Virus record (IMG/VR): IMGVR_UViG_3300029309_000068
Coordinates: 1-50,038 of that record
Direction: 5' to 3' (one strand)
From: a virus
Lineage: Duplodnaviria; Caudoviricetes
DNA length: 50,038 bases
The stretch's first letter is position 1; each line of letters opens with the position of its first letter. The notes under the pieces are model-generated. The model was given only the letters and a program-made list of their open reading frames with translations, made no database searches and was not told the origin of the DNA. Below, one piece after another: positions 39,039 to 50,038 of the stretch. A program made the translations under genes and the position numbers.

Positions 39039-39241
39039 TATTTGTCTCCTATATTTCTTGGTGCATATACTTCACCGTTGTATTGGCTACCTGTTTCAGT
39101 ATCTGTTCCGAAGTTGAAGTACGCTAGTACCACTAGCATTGCCATTATCCAGTAGAAGGTAACCTTCACCCACTTGATAAATGCCTCGTACGTTTGCTTT
39201 GCTTCTAGCTCTGCTGCGTATCTTGGTTCTACACCTTTCAT
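39038..39241 (-). CDS. Single-TM peptide resembling aa3 cytochrome c oxidase subunit IV
   Basis: TYEAFIK...AMLVVLAYFN; see findings. Confidence 0.5.
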   Translation of the reverse strand: MKGVEPRYAAELEAKQTYEAFIKWVKVTFYWIMAMLVVLAYFNFGTDTETGSQYNGEVYAPRNIGDK

Positions 39242-40029
39242 TAAACTATCTCCTCTAGTTTCTTAATGTCTGCATCTACTTTGTATTTAATATCATCATA
39301 GAGTCTTAACGCTATAGTTTCTAACCCTGTGTAAGCCTCTATCTCTCTCTTGTACTCTAGTGTTTTATATGCAGCGTCAGGGTCTAATGCTACAATAACC
39401 TTATAAAAATTATCTAAGTGTTGCATATTAGATACACTGAATGATGTACCCAATATAGCCAAACCTGTTAGCCCAGGAAATAGTTTAGCTGCTACGGTAG
39501 CACTAATAACATCCTCAACTACTATCACCACACCACTGGGTTTACCTACAACACGAGTGAATACAGTGGGTGTTTTGTCATAACGCCTCCATTTAACTTG
39601 CCCTGCATAAGATGTACACCTACCTATCGCTCCTACAAGTCTGCCTTTGTCATAGATAGGGAAGACTACTCGTGAGTCCATCACATCATACATCAAGTCT
39701 TCACCATACAAGCCCCACCTACCAATGAATCTCTCAAACTGCTTATGCTCTACAGTAGGCTTGACTATATACTCAGGCCAAGTAAATAACTCATGCTCCG
39801 ACTCAGGCTCTTCATACTGATTAAGCCTACGTTGTATCTCTTGGGCTGTCATACCTGATGACACAACACCTTTAACTCTACAGTCAAGCTTGTAACAATT
39901 GTAAAGCAGAGCACTACCATCTCGTGTAGCAGTGAACGTGTTCTTACCTCTACACACAGGGCAGTCACCTCTATGTCTGTAATCCTCTTTTAGATCAAGG
40001 GCTTCTAGGTAGTTCTTAATGTTGTTCAT
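39241..40029 (-). CDS. DNA primase (zinc-binding plus TOPRIM domains)
   Basis: CPVC...CYKLDC, RVVFPI, VVED, LGT, LDPDA and DIK. Confidence 0.9.
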   Translation of the reverse strand: MNNIKNYLEALDLKEDYRHRGDCPVCRGKNTFTATRDGSALLYNCYKLDCRVKGVVSSGMTAQEIQRRLNQYEEPESEHELFTWPEYIVKPTVEHKQFERFIGRWGLYGEDLMYDVMDSRVVFPIYDKGRLVGAIGRCTSYAGQVKWRRYDKTPTVFTRVVGKPSGVVIVVEDVISATVAAKLFPGLTGLAILGTSFSVSNMQHLDNFYKVIVALDPDAAYKTLEYKREIEAYTGLETIALRLYDDIKYKVDADIKKLEEIV

Positions 40030-40960
40030 CTCTGCTCCTCCGCTTATTCAATGCATTACTTGCGCCACTAAATGTGTTGACAAGGTAAGGCTTGACTGAC
40101 TCAGGATTCACATGCCCTGTTACTTGCATCAACTCAAGAGTCTCAACACCTGCCTCCACCATCTCAGTGATTGCAGTCCTGCGTAGATCCATAGCTGTCA
40201 GTTTCTTTGGTAGTCTTGCAGCTTCCTTGACTTCATTGATTGCATCATCGATGTGGTCAATAGCGTATGGAACGTATGCCCCTGCCACTGGTGTAGTCTT
40301 TGGTGCTACATAGTCTTGAAATCCAAAGTCCTGACTCTGTTGTCTGAGCATAGAAAGTAGATCATCAGGTATCGGCAAGTGCACATCAGCACCACGTTTA
40401 CTTTGTGTTAAATCAACACGTTGTGCGCTGAAGTTAATGTTATCCCAAGTCAAGGTACGCATGTCACCAACACGCTGCGCCCACTCGTATGCCATGTGTA
40501 CAATCAATCCAATGCTACGCCACTTGAAGTTACCGTATGCTGTGTCAAGAAAAGATACTACTTGATCACGAGTCCACTTGACCTTGCGTGGCTTAGTGCT
40601 CTTCGTCTTGATCAAACGTACTGGGTCATTGTCCATTACGTCTAACCTCATGCTGTACTTCCATGCCGTAGACAGGACAGCCTTGCGATAGTTAGCTGTG
40701 CGTACACCAGACACAAGCCACTTCTCGTAAGCCAGGTTAGTGTGTCTAGCTTTGATGCTGCGTACTGTGTAGTTACCTAAGAGCCTACCCTCTACGTTAG
40801 TCTTAAGTATTACATCCAAGTGTGTCTCGTAGTCTTTCTGTGACTTAGCACTCAAGTTACGAAAGTTATTGCTGTGTAGATAGAAGTCTACAATAGCTGA
40901 CAACTTCGATGTATGTTTAGGTATGTCTACCACTTTCTCCTCACTTTCCAATATACCCAC
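40016..40960 (-). CDS. int: Tyrosine recombinase / integrase
   Basis: QRVGD (R), QSK (K), MDLRRT, TGH and PY catalytic boxes. Confidence 0.88.
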   Translation of the reverse strand: MGILESEEKVVDIPKHTSKLSAIVDFYLHSNNFRNLSAKSQKDYETHLDVILKTNVEGRLLGNYTVRSIKARHTNLAYEKWLVSGVRTANYRKAVLSTAWKYSMRLDVMDNDPVRLIKTKSTKPRKVKWTRDQVVSFLDTAYGNFKWRSIGLIVHMAYEWAQRVGDMRTLTWDNINFSAQRVDLTQSKRGADVHLPIPDDLLSMLRQQSQDFGFQDYVAPKTTPVAGAYVPYAIDHIDDAINEVKEAARLPKKLTAMDLRRTAITEMVEAGVETLELMQVTGHVNPESVKPYLVNTFSGASNALNKRRSRDEQH

Positions 40961-44782: not shown

Positions 44783-45143
44783 GCTTGAACCCTTCCTCTG
44801 CCTGTGCGTCAGTAAGCTTGTACTCTATGCCTGTCTTTAGGTCTTGCACAATCCAAGGCATCTTACGTGCTTTACTCTTGTAGCCTACCAAACTGAAAGA
44901 CATACCTTGATAGTCGTGTATCTTAGACGTATCCAAACCCATTAGTTTAGCCATCTGTGTCAAGTCTTTCTGTTCTTTCGTTTCTGCTCCATCAAGCAAT
45001 ACATTTACTTTGTATGTAGCCTCTCCACCATTGTAGGTACAGTTAGCTACATTGAATGTCATACCCTCATAATCCAATCGCTCTAATGCTGATTGCATTG
45101 CTGCTCGTATTGTTTTTAGTTGTGGTTTTGTAAAGTTAGTCAT
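44769..45143 (-). CDS. Hypothetical early protein
   Basis: 124 aa with AAGGAGG SD. Confidence 0.7.
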   Translation of the reverse strand: MTNFTKPQLKTIRAAMQSALERLDYEGMTFNVANCTYNGGEATYKVNVLLDGAETKEQKDLTQMAKLMGLDTSKIHDYQGMSFSLVGYKSKARKMPWIVQDLKTGIEYKLTDAQAEEGFKHERV

Positions 45144-45156
45144 TTGTAATTCCTCC

Positions 45157-45873
45157 TTATATGTCTACTACAAATCCTGTTGTATCTTTCTTGGCTTTAC
45201 CCTTTGCGTACAATGCCACAATGGAATTGCTAGGGTCAAGAAAGCGTAAGTCATCTTTGTCTCCGTCTGTCACATTTATGCCACGCCACTGTGGTAGCTT
45301 GTATTCCTTACGGAACACCACAGCCGCATTCATACCGTTGTCGAGTGCATCTTGTAGCTTGTCAGCATACTGGACATTCGCACCTGAGTAAGACCACGTT
45401 AAGTGATAGTTGAATATGTCCTTAGTCTTTCTGTTAGAAATCTTGGTGTAGTCGTAGAATTGCACAGATGGGAATAACTCAAAGATATTTTTACCATCTA
45501 GCTTGACTGTCTCCCACCTAATGTCTGTCGTACCGTTCAACCTAACACATGGCTGAATGCCACGTTTGTCACAGTAAGCTTGAAACTTGGTAATGTCCGT
45601 GTGTAGTTGACGCATAAAGCTTTCCCTATCACGATAGTACCATTCAGTCTTACGCATTCGTGCAGCTTGCACATTGTTGAACGCACCACGCCCTGCTGTG
45701 TACAAACAAGCGTCAATACAGTTTGCTTGTTCAGCCATAGGGCAAGAGTTGAAAGCTTTACCCTCAACCATAACTTTCCAAGGTGTCATATATAGGATAG
45801 CTGTTAGGTATTCACTTCCATCACCTTTGATTGTTTTGGCATTAGTGCCAACTCCTAATAGTTTGTATGTCAT
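45157..45873 (-). CDS. GP88-like protein (possible degenerate radical-SAM / Fe-S enzyme)
   Basis: CX7CX3C cluster, VRLNGTTDI, FYDYTK, NYHLTWS and DGDKDDLRFLDP. Confidence 0.65.
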   Translation of the reverse strand: MTYKLLGVGTNAKTIKGDGSEYLTAILYMTPWKVMVEGKAFNSCPMAEQANCIDACLYTAGRGAFNNVQAARMRKTEWYYRDRESFMRQLHTDITKFQAYCDKRGIQPCVRLNGTTDIRWETVKLDGKNIFELFPSVQFYDYTKISNRKTKDIFNYHLTWSYSGANVQYADKLQDALDNGMNAAVVFRKEYKLPQWRGINVTDGDKDDLRFLDPSNSIVALYAKGKAKKDTTGFVVDI

Positions 45874-45874
45874 C

Positions 45875-46135
45875 TTATTTTGTTCTCCATATACGCACAG
45901 ACTTTTTGTCTTTTATTGTGCGGATAGCAAAAAGTTTTTCTGGTTCTCGTTTTTTATGACTTTGTATAGCTGATGTAAGCCTACTAGCTACCTGTTTGTA
46001 ATTAAGCTTTGTAGTTGGATCAACAGTAACAGCAAAGCTATCTCCTACATCCATATCTGTAAAAGGATATTTATGGCTAGATACACCACCCCAAATAGGA
46101 TTAGGCATTTCAATATTTTTTTCTATTTTGTACAT
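45875..46135 (-). CDS. Small putative DNA-binding protein, first early gene
   Basis: IEKNIEMP...KYPF..MDVGDSF...VRIWR; ATG at 46135 after AGGAGG. Confidence 0.7.
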   Translation of the reverse strand: MYKIEKNIEMPNPIWGGVSSHKYPFTDMDVGDSFAVTVDPTTKLNYKQVASRLTSAIQSHKKREPEKLFAIRTIKDKKSVRIWRTK

Positions 46136-46147
46136 TGTGTTTCCTCC

Positions 46148-46660
46148 TGTTAGTACATAAAGGTACACCTAATTGGGAGGTTTTTTAGATGTACCCATAT
46201 GTAACAACAGATTTAGTAAGTCACACCCTGAACCCATACGTCAAGAGCATAAGGATAGGTTGGCCTATCTTAGCTCAGGGTGTAACCGAATAGTCACAAT
46301 CTGTTAGCTCTAACGTGTGCACATCTGTGTACTGTGCATAGTATCCACCCTTTAAGAGCACCCTATAGCCAGGCATAAATATACCAGTCCTGGCCTTGCA
46401 GGTTAGCCCATGCAATTAAGCAAAATCGGCAACATACGTTCATCACGAGTATACTATCAGGCATACTAGCTGTCTTAAGTTATTCTATAATCGTTAGTCT
46501 GTTTGTTGTTCTTTCTAGTTAGTTTGTTTGTAGTCGTTTAGTCTGTTAGTCATTTAGTTATTTGATAGGGCATTTCACCGTATCTGTCTAAGGACTCTGT
46601 TAGTATGAGGATCAAGAGTTTTTAAACTTACTCTCAAGCTAACTTGTCGCTTTCGATGTA
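46148..46660 (-). ncRNA. Long structured early leader / candidate ncRNA
   Basis: Several stems whose mismatches are G-U only on the - strand; no ORF of 60 aa or more. Confidence 0.5.
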
Positions 46661-46663
46661 TCT

Positions 46664-46693
46664 ACATTAACCCGAACATCTTTTGAATTGCAA
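46664..46693 (-). promoter_or_regulatory. Putative early promoter TTGCAA-N18-TAATGT
   Basis: Best sigma70-like match pointing toward the early genes; spacing is suboptimal. Confidence 0.4.
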
Positions 46694-46700
46694 TAGGTTT

Positions 46701-46773
46701 TTTGCAGATTGTGTGCAGATTGTTGTTAAGCTATTGATATTAAACAAAAAGAATTTGCAGATTGTGTGCAGAT
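46701..46773. repeat. Perfect 20-bp direct repeat flanking an IHF-like box
   Basis: TTTGCAGATTGTGTGCAGAT at 46701-46720 and 46754-46773. Confidence 0.9.
46727..46739 (-). promoter_or_regulatory. IHF consensus site
   Basis: TATCAA-TAGC-TTA matches WATCAANNNNTTR. Confidence 0.55.
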
Positions 46774-46789
46774 AGTATGCTTGTCCTTA

Positions 46790-46877
46790 TTTGTGATCAC
46801 AAAAGGTATGTGTGACCATGCATGTCTGTTGTATTTGTGACCACAAACTTGATGGGGGTATGCTTTTTTGTGATCAC
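46790..46877. repeat. Cluster of palindromic TTTGTGAYCACAAA sites
   Basis: 46790-46803 (perfect), 46834-46847, 46867-46877, and a partial copy at 46811-46818. Confidence 0.8.
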
Positions 46878-47003
46878 GGTACAACTATTGAAGCTATATC
46901 AGTAGTAAAACACAGTAAAAACAATAGTTTACATGCTATATTACTAGATAGAATAACAATAAATATTTATGCCTAGTAAGAACCAATAATAAATATGCAA
47001 TAA

Positions 47004-47016
47004 TATCAAAGACTTA
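47004..47016 (+). promoter_or_regulatory. IHF consensus site
   Basis: TATCAA-AGAC-TTA. Confidence 0.55.
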
Positions 47017-47123
47017 ACAGAATCAAGGTGGGTAGGGCGAGGGCCACGGTGGGGTACTACGTTATACGTATATGTACAAATACACACACGAGGTTTTTTC
47101 ACTGGGTGACGCAACGTAACTTG

Positions 47124-47152
47124 TTGACAGACCCTTGACTGTGGCTATAACT
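47124..47152 (+). promoter_or_regulatory. Putative promoter TTGACA-N16-TATAACT
   Basis: Matches the recurrent motif. Confidence 0.7.
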
Positions 47153-47284
47153 ATGGGGGTAAGGGGGCATGTTAAACATTAATGTTAAAACATTATAAAA
47201 GTAATTAAACATAAATCATCTAAACATTAAATGTATAACATAGGGGTATCTACTTCCCTATACTAGTAACGATAAGAAAAGTTA

Positions 47285-47314
47285 TTGACACTCTTAAAAC
47301 ATTAATGCTACACT
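47285..47314 (+). promoter_or_regulatory. Putative promoter TTGACA-N18-TACACT
   Basis: Lies 45 nt upstream of the 47360 hairpin. Confidence 0.5.
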
Positions 47315-47359
47315 TACATTAGTTACAATCAATATAATAACTATACAACTTGTTGTAAC

Positions 47360-47451
47360 TACGTGTGTAGATTATCTGTGTAAGTTTAAACCACAGTGTC
47401 TCCTCCTCCCTCTATGTAGTTTGTACTTAGGCCTGGTAGTCTACACACGTA
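47360..47451 (+). ncRNA. Candidate sRNA: long hairpin with a CCUCCUCCC loop
   Basis: 17-bp basal stem with 2 G-U pairs, inner stems, loop GUGUCUCCUCCUCCCUCUA. Confidence 0.62.
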
Positions 47452-47478
47452 TTTGTTGTAGTTTATGTAAAGTTTTTC

Positions 47479-47507
47479 TTGACAATGCGAAACAAAGGCG
47501 TAAAACT
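47479..47507 (+). promoter_or_regulatory. Putative promoter TTGACA-N16-TAAAACT
   Basis: Matches the recurrent motif and overlaps the start of the next ORF. Confidence 0.65.
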
Positions 47508-47742
47508 ATATGCATCCGAAGATGTACTACACGACTTCTACGATGCATTAGCTAATAATGATGCTCGTGCTATACGGAAGGTACACATTCCAAAGTCGGA
47601 TGTGTTTTACGTAAGAGAAGCAATATATAATCGTACTGGTGAGTGGTATACACTGGACCATGTAGAACGTGCCATGTATCTTGAAGGTATGCTTACTAGA
47701 TATGAGGTACTAGATCCAGACAGGGAACGTGAGTATGGATAA
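47485..47742 (+). CDS. Conserved hypothetical protein (start uncertain)
   Basis: HIPKSDVFYVR...LDHVERAMYLEG. Confidence 0.65.
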   Translation: MRNKGVKLYASEDVLHDFYDALANNDARAIRKVHIPKSDVFYVREAIYNRTGEWYTLDHVERAMYLEGMLTRYEVLDPDREREYG

Positions 47743-48091
47743 CATGAAACTACCTATAGCACTTGTAGTAGCGATGGGTGCACAACTGGCAGGTGGCGTG
47801 TGGTGGGTATCACAACAAGCTGCTACTATAACTAGCCTCGAAGAGACTGTATCACAGTTTGCTAGTAAGATGGCTGTAGAAGATAGTGTGAATCTCAAGC
47901 GTGATGTGCTAGAGAACATGGATTACATCGATGGTGCATTCGCTGAGATAGAAGAACTGTGGGAAGAAACAGAAAGCCTAACTAAAACAATAGGGGCTAT
48001 CACTGCCTTACAACAACGTATGGCTTTAATGGAAAACAGTTTGAAGTTTATGAACCGTGACCACATGGAAATGCTAGACCCAAGGAAATAG
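47729..48091 (+). CDS. Membrane-anchored coiled-coil protein
   Basis: N-terminal TM segment (LPIALVVAMGAQLAGGVWWV) followed by heptads. Confidence 0.7.
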   Translation: MSMDNMKLPIALVVAMGAQLAGGVWWVSQQAATITSLEETVSQFASKMAVEDSVNLKRDVLENMDYIDGAFAEIEELWEETESLTKTIGAITALQQRMALMENSLKFMNRDHMEMLDPRK

Positions 48092-48092
48092 T

Positions 48093-48377
48093 ATGGCAAC
48101 GACTAAGGATGTAGAGCGACTCCCCAGTGGAAAGTTAAAGTACAGGGGTGAGATATACCCGGGATACAACAAACCTAAAAGCTTGAGAGGTGAAGCTAAG
48201 GCTTCAGCAGTTTTAGCTAAGAAAGGTACTGAAGTAAAAGTTGTACGCTTCGGTGACCCTAAGATGGCTATCCGTAAAGATAACCCTGCTGCACGTAAGA
48301 GCTTCAGGGCTAGACACAATTGTGATACAGCAACTGACAAGTTTACTGCAAGATATTGGAGTTGTAGAGCATGGTAA
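48093..48377 (+). CDS. Small basic conserved protein
   Basis: VRFGDP..RKSFRARHNC..ARYWSC..W. Confidence 0.75.
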   Translation: MATTKDVERLPSGKLKYRGEIYPGYNKPKSLRGEAKASAVLAKKGTEVKVVRFGDPKMAIRKDNPAARKSFRARHNCDTATDKFTARYWSCRAW

Positions 48378-48556
48378 AGAAAGCAAAGAGTAAAGTTAAT
48401 GCTGCTGGTAACTACACCAAACCGACAATGCGTAAGAACTTATTTAACAGCATCAAAGCAGGTGGTAAAGGTGGAAGCCCTGGACAATGGTCAGCACGTA
48501 AAGCGCAGATGCTTGCCAAGCAGTATAAAGCCAAAGGTGGAGGATACAAAACATGA
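48371..48556 (+). CDS. Small basic protein (N-terminal half of a DUF5872-like family)
   Basis: YTKP..R...IKAG.KGG.PGQWSARKAQ..A..YK..GGGY. Confidence 0.7.
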   Translation: MVKKAKSKVNAAGNYTKPTMRKNLFNSIKAGGKGGSPGQWSARKAQMLAKQYKAKGGGYKT

Positions 48557-48627
48557 GAAGATACCTAAAGAGATTGTGGTGTGCGATTATCAATCGTAAG
48601 TGCCACCCAGATTGTGATTGTTGCTAG
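48553..48627 (+). CDS. 24-aa Cys-rich peptide not in the ORF track
   Basis: MRRYLKRLWCAIINRKCHPDCDCC; GGAGGA SD and ATGA overlap. Confidence 0.6.
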   Translation: MRRYLKRLWCAIINRKCHPDCDCC

Positions 48628-48759
48628 ATGGCATTAAGTAAATCAAATAAAACAAAAGTAAAAAAAGTTGCTAAGGGTTTGAACAAAGCCTCTAAGCTTC
48701 ACGCTGCTCAGGCAAAGACCTTAAAAGGTATGCTTAAAAAAAGTACAAATAAAAAATGA
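48628..48759 (+). CDS. 43-aa Lys-rich peptide not in the ORF track
   Basis: MALSKSNKTKVKKVAKGLNKASKLHAAQAKTL...; abuts the upstream stop and has an ATGA overlap downstream. Confidence 0.65.
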   Translation: MALSKSNKTKVKKVAKGLNKASKLHAAQAKTLKGMLKKSTNKK

Positions 48760-49091
48760 GAGCGCCTCAAAAGTCATTAAAGAAGTGGGGTGACCAGAAG
48801 TGGAGGACCAAAAGTGGTAAACCCTCTACGCAAGGTCCTAATGCTACTGGTGAACGTTACCTCCCTGCTAAGGCTATTAAGTCTCTTAGCAGCAGTGAGT
48901 ATGCAGCTACAACCAGAGCTAAACGAAAAGGCAAGGCGTCAGGTAAGCAGCATGTATCTCAACCTAAAGAAGTCGCAAAGAAAACTAGGAGATTTAGAGC
49001 CAACAAAGGTGGTGTTGCTAAAAGTCCTAGACAACAGGCTGCAATAGCTGTTAGTATGAAGAAGAGAGGTAAAAAACCGAAAGGAAAGTAA
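48756..49091 (+). CDS. Small basic protein (C-terminal half of a DUF5872-like family)
   Basis: QKSLKKWGDQKWRTKSG..RYLP..AIK.LS..EY..T.RAKR. Confidence 0.7.
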   Translation: MRAPQKSLKKWGDQKWRTKSGKPSTQGPNATGERYLPAKAIKSLSSSEYAATTRAKRKGKASGKQHVSQPKEVAKKTRRFRANKGGVAKSPRQQAAIAVSMKKRGKKPKGK

Positions 49092-49765
49092 TGCCCTATC
49101 TTACTAGCAGCATACCGTACTTTAAAGCATGGGTACGTAGAGAATACACTAAGAACTTAGAAGAATATCACGGAGAGTTTTTACATTGTATGGTCATAGG
49201 TGTAACCACCATGCCAAACAGAACGTTAAGCTTTCAAGTTTTATTTACTGGATTTGAATCAGACATAGATGATTCAGAGAATATACACGGTGGTGCAATG
49301 TGGGCTAGGATGCCCTTGACTGCACTTGTAGCTGACACGCCATACGAAGAATGGCCTGAAGAGTTACCACCCTATCTGGCACAACCTTGGGATTGTATGT
49401 CTCATACACATTCCGTATATAAATTAGACAGGGCAACACCTGCCCCTTGGATAGCAAAAGTAGATGGTGAGTTCTATCCTGCAAAGTATTACTTCACTGT
49501 TGACTACACAGATAATGAAGTAGCTGATGATCCTGCACAACACAAACAGTCACACGTACTGGAGTTGTTAGATGCAGGTGAGTACACAGGTAACATAGTT
49601 GCGTTACCCAATAATAGAGTGAGAGTAACTCACCCTGCATGGTTTGAAACAGGTCAAGGTGCTCCTGACTTTAGACCAAACCAACATATATATAACTCGA
49701 AAGAAAACGTAGACTATGTATGGGATACGCAACGAGTCTTTAACAATTTATATAGTGAGGAATAA
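49091..49765 (+). CDS. Conserved hypothetical protein of marine podoviruses
   Basis: 224 aa; WVRREY, GAMWARMP, QPWDC, YYFTVDY, HKQSHV and ALPNNR. Confidence 0.75.
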   Translation: MPYLTSSIPYFKAWVRREYTKNLEEYHGEFLHCMVIGVTTMPNRTLSFQVLFTGFESDIDDSENIHGGAMWARMPLTALVADTPYEEWPEELPPYLAQPWDCMSHTHSVYKLDRATPAPWIAKVDGEFYPAKYYFTVDYTDNEVADDPAQHKQSHVLELLDAGEYTGNIVALPNNRVRVTHPAWFETGQGAPDFRPNQHIYNSKENVDYVWDTQRVFNNLYSEE

Positions 49766-49767
49766 AA

Positions 49768-50038
49768 ATGAAAAAGAAAAAGGGAATGGCCGTAGGTGGC
49801 ATGAAGAAAAAGAAAGACATGAAAGGCATGGGCATGAAAGATGGCGGTGTGTCTAAAAAGAAAAAAGGCATGGCAGTAGGCGGTGCTAAAATGAAGAAGA
49901 AGGGTATGGCTGTCGGTGGTGCTAAAATGAAAAAGAAAGGCATGGCTGTCGGTGGTATGAAGAAAAAAGGTATGGCCGTTGGGGGCATGAAAAAGAAGGG
50001 TATGTCCGTAGGCGGTTTGAAGAAAGCACCAAACAAAG
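49768..50038 (+). CDS. Lys-rich repeat protein (KKKGMAVGG)n, 3'-truncated by the window edge
   Basis: ATG at 49768 after GAGGA; open to the end. Five GMAVGG, one GMSVGG and one GMKDGG with varied synonymous codons. Confidence 0.85.
   Translation, partial: MKKKKGMAVGGMKKKKDMKGMGMKDGGVSKKKKGMAVGGAKMKKKGMAVGGAKMKKKGMAVGGMKKKGMAVGGMKKKGMSVGGLKKAPNK

Follow-up and report, generated by a model that had tools for sequence, protein, structure and literature searches.

A conserved structured RNA with an anti-Shine-Dalgarno-like loop in the control region of one subgroup of HMO-2011-type phages

The immunity RNAs C4 of phage P1 and CI of phage P4 are derived from leaders, and their loops base-pair with the phage's own ribosome sites, located downstream within the same transcript. 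The PR'-tR' '6S' transcript of lambda, which goes with Q antitermination, is a short promoter-proximal RNA heading a long phage operon, and the put RNA of HK022 forms two stem-loops right after its promoter, with loops that are not CU-rich. In T4 a protein nuclease, the endoribonuclease RegB, shuts off early messages by attacking GGAG Shine-Dalgarno (SD) sequences. C/U-rich apical loops of small RNAs serve as the seed against SD regions, according to the available part of PMC4615179. The cuckoo/CcsR family (Rfam ar14 group, NfeR) is defined by two to four hairpins side by side, every one of which carries CCUCCUCCC in the loop (PMC4615179, available part), and a DUF1127 gene is often adjacent (PMC4615179 and PMC8034643, available parts).

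The window analysed here is a stretch of 50,038 bases, the whole of one IMG/VR virus record with an estimated completeness of 91%, and its nearest isolates are the Roseobacter phages CRP-2 and CRP-603 (HMO-2011 type). HMO-2011-type phages are among the most abundant marine viral groups. Nothing about their transcription control was found in print in the literature searched, and the words promoter, intergenic, noncoding and sRNA were absent from the comparative paper on these phages.

Genes for ribonucleotide reductase, a PD-(D/E)XK nuclease and family A DNA polymerase were located on the - strand between 29.5 and 46.2 kb, together with those for a DnaB-like helicase, an integrase and a C5 methyltransferase, and the portal gene and large structural-looking genes were on the + strand. 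No RNA polymerase domain was revealed among the 30 window proteins scanned. The integrase gene of the replication module encodes a tyrosine integrase (40016-40960, - strand; Phage_integrase, E 3.9e-18), giving a hint that the phage may be temperate, in which case its control region might serve to switch between lysis and lysogeny and not simply from early to late genes.

The divergent - and + units are separated by a 1.3-kb non-coding region (46170-47484), in which the hairpin element sits. The first rightward gene (47485..47742, + strand) encodes a conserved 85-aa protein; it has no SD sequence upstream, and the duplex energy of its start with the anti-SD was about zero. For this protein Pfam gave only a sub-threshold KRAB match and PHROGs none, while the AlphaFold2 model had four helices at a mean pLDDT of 66, with the best Foldseek match in the PDB at E 2.0. 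Further to the right, several very basic small proteins (48371-49091; PHROG families only) were encoded ahead of an open-ended ORF with tandem KKKGMAVGG-type repeats (49768-50037, + strand). The control region also has a G-rich block that resembles a G-quadruplex motif, with at least four G runs (47027-47054), and after it comes a conserved ACGTTATACGTATATGTAC...ACACACGAGGTTTTTT block (47027-47100 for the whole). Both blocks were kept in all clades, with 75% identity to CRP-2; folded as RNA, the stretch 47020-47105 was no better than shuffles (z -0.01). The G-rich block (47027-47100) is a possible origin.

The hairpin, named SL2 (47361..47450, + strand), is long and irregular, about 90 nt with a stem of about 30-40 bp in total, and is composed of a lower stem of about 17 bp, upper helices and an apical loop some 20-30 nt long. 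Towards its base the stem is richer in G+C (ACGUG/CACGU). The initial annotation had proposed this structure, and the sequence, read directly, bore it out: 47360-47376 (tacgtgtgtagattatc) pairs with 47435-47451 over 17 bp, two of the pairs are G-U (T47372-G47439 and T47375-G47436) and would turn into A-C mismatches if read from the - strand, the inner helices agree with the description, and CCTCCTCCC lies in the apical loop at 47402-47410. The + strand of 47360-47451 folded at -38.5 kcal/mol (shuffle mean -18.7, sd 3.2; z -6.28), with none of 200 shuffles as good; the - strand folded at -26.4 kcal/mol (z -2.87), and 2 of 200 shuffles were as good. Since many of its pairs are G-U, SL2 was assigned to the + strand, and it is confirmed as an RNA structure of that strand.

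About 500 relatives of the adjacent 85-aa gene were found in IMG/VR, 504 of 515 candidate stretches being confirmed. The homologue set was composed of the window, CRP-2, CRP-603 and the best 80 of the 504 IMG/VR loci (83 sequences), of which 82 had enough upstream DNA to be assessed for the hairpin (the window, CRP-2, CRP-603 and 79 IMG/VR contigs). When each was folded separately, a long hairpin with a pyrimidine tract in the apical loop was present at 81 of the 82 loci. The only one without it (L035) had lost the 3' arm of the SL2 lower stem, which may reflect decay of this copy or a fault in the assembly.

At least 21 different pairs of lower-stem arms were observed, and the stems were wholly unlike between clades. 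Counted from the invariant G47363-C47448 pair for 10 steps inwards in the 61 unique sequences, 606 of 610 lower-stem cells held standard pairs (G-U in 89 of the 610), and most of the four unpaired cells came from two mis-anchored rows, L006 (truncated) and L069 (one mismatch). With the partner slid by 1-3 positions, only 126-365 of the 610 cells paired (21-60%). This anchored count, together with a covariance-model alignment, superseded a MAFFT alignment read by RNAalifold, in which the arms were out of register, with 0 pairs for all clades and 6 pairs for 32 sequences.

A covariance model of SL1 (the 5' stem-loop ahead of SL2) and SL2 was built from the window's clade. It found a single copy in the window, scoring 180.8 bits on the + strand and 43.6 bits on the - strand, and matched the + strand in 59 of 62 sources. 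In these 59 rows 1851 of 1981 cells were paired (slid controls 22-43%) and double changes, on both sides, occurred at all 36 pairs, in an alignment that was fitted to the model and so is biased towards structure. Among the 37 best rows, 95.3% of cells were paired, against 75.4% in shuffles and 22-41% in slid versions, and the covariation score was 0.518 against 0.175 in shuffles. A covariance alignment was the check that the initial annotation had named, and by it the stems covary, with compensatory changes at 23 of 36 pairs and none of 500 shuffles as high. Taken with the fold z-scores and the pairing counts, these results give a conserved + strand RNA structure the best support that computation can offer.

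The loop motif (47396..47413, + strand) consists of a core, GU(G/A)UCUCC (47396-47403), and then a variable pyrimidine tract; CCUCCUCCC is included at 47402-47410. The core was present in 57 of the 61 unique sequences, its columns being nearly invariant; UCUCC was in all 61 and CCUCC in 49, while exact CCUCCUCCC (CCTCCTCCC as DNA) was in just 17. The 9-mer CCUCCUCCC singled out by the initial annotation is thus the local form of a broader anti-SD-like loop. The 9-mer by itself was unremarkable in the window (2 matches at up to one mismatch, 3.4 expected), and takes its weight from its conserved position in the loop. In CRP-207 two tandem GUCUCCUCC cores occur within one SL2 loop (about 1375-1445 of its locus, L084). 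A scan of the collection for the loop motif (GTGTCTCCTCYYCCCTC) gave 27 loci, of which 19 were the same phage clade; the remaining 8 contigs had no SL1-SL2 by the model and unrelated contexts, and were put down to chance or to complements of SD sequences.

More belongs to the unit than was first described: a promoter (P2) and SL1 come before SL2, and after it come a U-rich tail and a third promoter-like site. P2 (47285..47314, + strand) is sigma-70-like, with TTGACA, N18 and TACACT with a TG extension (10/12 match), and an operator-like half-palindromic site, AACATTAATGC (47298-47308), lies within its N18 spacer. In 58 of the 59 + strand rows TTGAC[AT] preceded the RNA model start by no more than 60 nt, mostly at a fixed -31, and the single row without it was at a contig end. 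SL1 (47321..47360, + strand) starts about 7 nt past the -10 box, at about the expected start of the P2 transcript. It is formed by AGUUACAA and UUGUAACU, and has an A/U-rich loop with a AAUAAUAAC-like motif. Helix 1 of SL1 was 98% paired in the 37 best rows, where one pair switches from CG to UA (19 vs 18 rows), and double changes were seen at all 8 SL1 pairs in the 59-row set. The 149-nt SL1-SL2 stretch folded at -44.5 kcal/mol (z -5.15).

Directly past the SL2 stem there is a U-rich, terminator-like tail, UUUGUUGUAG (47452..47461, + strand). Of 44 distinct stem-plus-tail types, 34 had at least five T in the first 8 nt, a content reached by 10.6% of 8-mers in the background; the tails were poor in some clades (L025, L048, L049, L069) and only moderately U-rich in the window's own clade. 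A terminator scan of the window, which allows loops of 3-8 nt only, gave no match at SL2; compared with a textbook terminator, the hairpin of SL2 is far longer and its loop far larger.

The element had been placed between two TTGACA boxes, and these stand at 47285 and 47479. The second belongs to the P3-like site (47479..47506, + strand; TTGACA 47479-47484, N16, TAAAAC 47501-47506), in which the -35 box directly adjoins the ATG of the 85-aa gene; across loci this TTGACA comes 14-38 nt past the hairpin end. The start of the gene carried TTGACAATG in 83 of 83 sequences and in 80 of 80 loci of a second set, and kept it too in CRP-1, CRP-345 and HMO-2011. GTAMAACTAT in the P3 region was almost invariant, synonymous sites included. 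Reading P3 as a promoter is supported by CRP-9 and CRP-13, in which the arrangement TTGAC(A/T)-N16-TACAAC stands upstream of the homologous gene. Transcripts from the P3-like TTGACA-N16-TA(A/C)AAC would begin within the 85-aa gene, and could not encode the 85-aa protein. At one locus (L006) an additional small hairpin of about 20 nt was observed between SL2 and P3.

A further promoter, P1 (47124..47151, + strand; TTGACA 47124-47129, N16, TATAAC 47146-47151), lies upstream, and its transcripts would start with a G-rich leader, GGGGGTAAGGGGG (47155-47167, + strand), and likewise enter SL1-SL2. The promoter scan as a whole was not above chance (6 found vs 7.0 expected), so the promoters rest on their conservation. 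Just downstream of P1 is a perfect palindrome, AACATTAATGTT (47175-47186), with a near copy inside the P2 spacer and more GTTAAAC-type half sites between P1 and P2 (47170-47260); equivalents of the palindrome were kept in relatives (e.g. CACTTAAGTG in HMO-2011). Palindrome, near copy (47298-47308) and half sites together look like an operator array for a regulator, and since the AACATTAATGTT-type palindrome is tied to both P1 and P2, the RNA would probably be under operator control.

Among the genomes examined, the hairpin was borne by the window, CRP-2, CRP-603 and CRP-207, which form one clade, and the RNA element marks one subgroup of HMO-2011-type phages. In CRP-1, CRP-345 and HMO-2011, P1 and TTGACAATG/P3 were kept, and P2, SL1 and SL2 were all missing together. 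Promoter and hairpins have thus been gained or lost as one, which argues for P2-SL1-SL2 as a self-contained cassette, and with this a small-RNA gene standing on its own would agree better than just a structure in a leader. In CRP-1 and CRP-345 the usual place of SL2, about 60-90 nt upstream of TTGACAATG, was taken by a small GCC-GNNA-GGC stem-loop that recalls boxB-type hairpins.

In sum, the results support the initial annotation in the + strand RNA structure, which is conserved, the sigma-70-type promoter and the anti-SD-like loop, and do not support a place for the RNA in CcsR/cuckoo or its 'late' timing. The explanation preferred here, tentatively and at somewhat less than an even chance, is a terminator-ended small RNA or attenuator of about 135-140 nt, whose anti-SD-like loop pairs with purine-rich ribosome sites. 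P2 would drive a transcript of this length that opens with SL1 and closes with SL2 and the U-rich tail, resembling an intrinsic terminator, and SL2 would keep open a single-stranded loop of 20-30 nt that copies the 16S anti-SD sequence. Part of the transcription from P1 and P2 would end at SL2 and yield the small RNA; its loop would then pair with, and might repress, purine-rich ribosome-binding sites (GGAGG, GGAGA(Y)AC), chiefly on the leftward mRNAs of the replication module and possibly on host mRNAs. The remaining transcription would read through, and the 85-aa gene would be expressed. Downstream of SL2 this gene lacks a separate promoter, so termination at SL2 cannot be complete. A discrete small RNA would fit both the U-rich tail and the way in which promoter and hairpins occur, or are missing, together. 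None of the sequencing runs with parts of the phage was on record as RNA; contigs of one run that may be RNA (6% of the words) covered parts of 45140-45736 and 48190-50038 and no position in 45840-48190, so that this run was uninformative for the element.

Strong SD sequences had been ascribed to early genes, and GGAGG-type sites were indeed present ahead of 5 of 34 called - strand genes (starts near 39241-40029, 43073, 43254, 44769 and 45875) and at 0 of 27 called + strand genes; the late SDs at 2667, 3836 and 13586 were AAGGAGA-type, also as described. The median energy of the predicted duplex between loop and ribosome site was -13.3 kcal/mol for the 34 leftward genes and -7.8 for the 27 rightward ones (p 3.5e-5); a plain anti-SD probe, used as control, gave a smaller difference (p 0.019) for the same comparison. 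Nine genomes were then compared by placing the window's loop on each, with our own crude gene calls, and taking the difference of duplex medians, replication minus structural strand. The difference was -5.4 kcal/mol in the window, -1.4 in CRP-2, -1.5 in CRP-603 and -4.5 in CRP-207, which bear the hairpin, and -0.5 in CRP-1, -0.7 in CRP-345, -0.2 in HMO-2011, -0.8 in CRP-9 and -2.1 in CRP-13, which do not. The asymmetry thus tends to be larger in the four hairpin-bearing genomes than in the five hairpin-less ones, a trend in line with the initial annotation, in a comparison confounded by the hairpin phages being one clade, and the predicted pairing favours the ribosome sites of the replication module only weakly.

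GGAGAYAC, the complement of the loop core, had 7 matches in the window against 2.0 expected. On the - strand RNA there were 5 copies, 3 at ribosome sites and 2 internal to genes. Leaving out the complement of the loop itself, the replication strand carried 5 copies in CRP-1 and 4 in CRP-345, which are hairpin-less, and 3 in CRP-2, 4 in CRP-603 and 2 in CRP-207, which bear the hairpin. As a signature of co-evolution GGAGAYAC was rejected, being no rarer in hairpin-less phages and gene-internal in 2 of its 5 window copies; its occurrence as a target motif is thus independent of the hairpin. The complementarity is moreover of low specificity, as an SD of any kind will pair with a CU-rich loop of any kind. 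The GGGGGTAAGGGGG leader was among the best predicted + strand partners of the loop (-21 kcal/mol), and was rejected as a partner as well, since it occurs in only one supergroup, is altered in CRP-603, and is absent or different in the other supergroup.

As to timing, the RNA had been supposed to be made late. P1, P2 and P3 have the only perfect TTGACA boxes of the control region, are the best host-type promoters there and all point rightward, and no leftward promoter of their quality was found in the region, so the RNA could equally be made early. A bolder form of the preferred explanation is unlikely as matters stand: a self-terminating phage small RNA would mimic the 3' end of 16S rRNA, would be made from its own operator-controlled promoter, and would use its giant CU loop to blanket the strong SDs of the replication module, perhaps of the host too, while SL2 would meter read-through into the structural operon.

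It is quite possible, though on balance doubtful, that SL1-SL2 has no target in trans and is purely a cis-acting leader, a regulated attenuator or antitermination signal of the rightward operon. Its loops would then bind a phage regulator, host S1, Hfq, a Nus factor or RNA polymerase itself, and the binding would set the share of P1 and P2 transcripts that reach the 85-aa gene and the structural genes. The position of the element speaks for this, just downstream of promoters and heading a transcription unit of at least some 30 kb, with two adjacent stem-loops at the 5' end, much as HK022 put RNA is laid out; a terminator-like tail before an essential-looking conserved gene implies regulated read-through. 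Two different conserved loops, one A/U-rich and one CU-rich, would suit recognition by a protein or polymerase, CRP-1 and CRP-345 bear other small hairpins (GCC-GNNA-GGC) at the same place, and the target-motif test showed no specificity. However, a dedicated promoter that is gained and lost with the hairpins would be superfluous for a leader of P1 transcripts, no candidate binding protein was found, the 85-aa neighbour being without a recognisable fold, and the anti-SD-like composition of the loop is left unexplained. Ribosomal protein S1 prefers pyrimidine-rich single strands, and the element could instead be a translational enhancer or ribosome standby site whose pyrimidine loop recruits 30S via S1 to the 85-aa gene. 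The SD-less start of this gene, its anti-SD duplex energy of about zero, the hairpin end 14-38 nt ahead of the TTGACA that abuts the ATG, and the pyrimidine preference of S1 would all suit such a role, which is nevertheless improbable: the hairpin-less CRP-1, CRP-345 and HMO-2011 keep the SD-less TTGACAATG start, which argues against a need for the hairpin in translating the gene, the spacing varies (L006 even has the hairpin insert of about 20 nt), and the U tail and the dedicated promoter are unexplained.

An element acting as DNA, whether replication origin, packaging or nicking signal, or polypurine-polypyrimidine H-DNA tract, would be in keeping with the repeats, palindromes and G-rich block of the control region, which are typical of origins. 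It is very improbable in view of the 89 of 610 lower-stem cells that are G-U and would be A-C on the other strand, the much weaker fold and model scores of the - strand, and stems that covary while only the loop sequence is fixed. Least credible of all is membership in CcsR/cuckoo, the family whose motif the initial annotation had pointed to, by which the phage would have taken over one of these small RNAs from a host. Exact CCUCCUCCC in the window's loop and hosts within the Rhodobacteraceae, where CcsR/cuckoo occurs, would agree with it, but there is one CU loop instead of two to four, and the exact motif is in 17 of 61 sequences. When 46100-47600 was searched with Rfam cmscan up to E 10, only a chance-level mir-199 match appeared (13.8 bits, gathering score 60) and no family reached even E 1, and no DUF1127 was found in a Pfam scan of 10 flanking proteins.

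The RNA element is new to the databases and the literature searched, in which it was not described. With it a conserved control region is defined, in which three host-type promoters stand in tandem beside operator-like palindromes and a new, very strongly covarying structured RNA, and a testable candidate is provided for RNA-based regulation in phages in which no RNA polymerase is recognisable. Should the anti-SD loop work in trans, phages would have a further, new means of reprogramming translation; should it work in cis alone, it would still be a new RNA motif deserving an Rfam entry.

With cuckoo/CcsR the SL2 hairpin has in common a CCUCC-containing pyrimidine loop resembling the anti-SD, a conserved loop on highly variable stems with many compensatory changes, and the host lineage (PMC4615179 and PMC8034643, available parts). 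The phage-borne element differs in having the CU loop in SL2 only, the loop of SL1 being A/U-rich, in the core GU(G/A)UCUCC instead of CCUCCUCCC, and in a far longer stem (about 30-40 bp in total) that doubles as a terminator-like element. The likeness is functional, and may be a convergence in the same host lineage. As far as the accounts available go, the RNAIII/Rsa RNAs of S. aureus (UCCC loops) and sX13 of Xanthomonas have a C/U-rich loop seed like SL2; they are chromosomal and unrelated in sequence, and their short seed loops are separate from the terminator, unlike SL2.

Among phage RNAs, the cassette would resemble lambda 6S and put in layout alone, as two promoter-proximal stem-loops ahead of a long operon, and in contrast to lambda 6S/Q no Q-like or other antiterminator gene was recognised in the phage. 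C4 and CI differ in that the best predicted targets of the SL2 loop are on the opposite transcription unit. The proposed SD-directed switch would follow the same logic as T4 RegB, with an RNA as the agent in the phage, and if this is true, it would be an RNA-only counterpart of RegB-type early-gene shut-off in highly abundant ocean phages.
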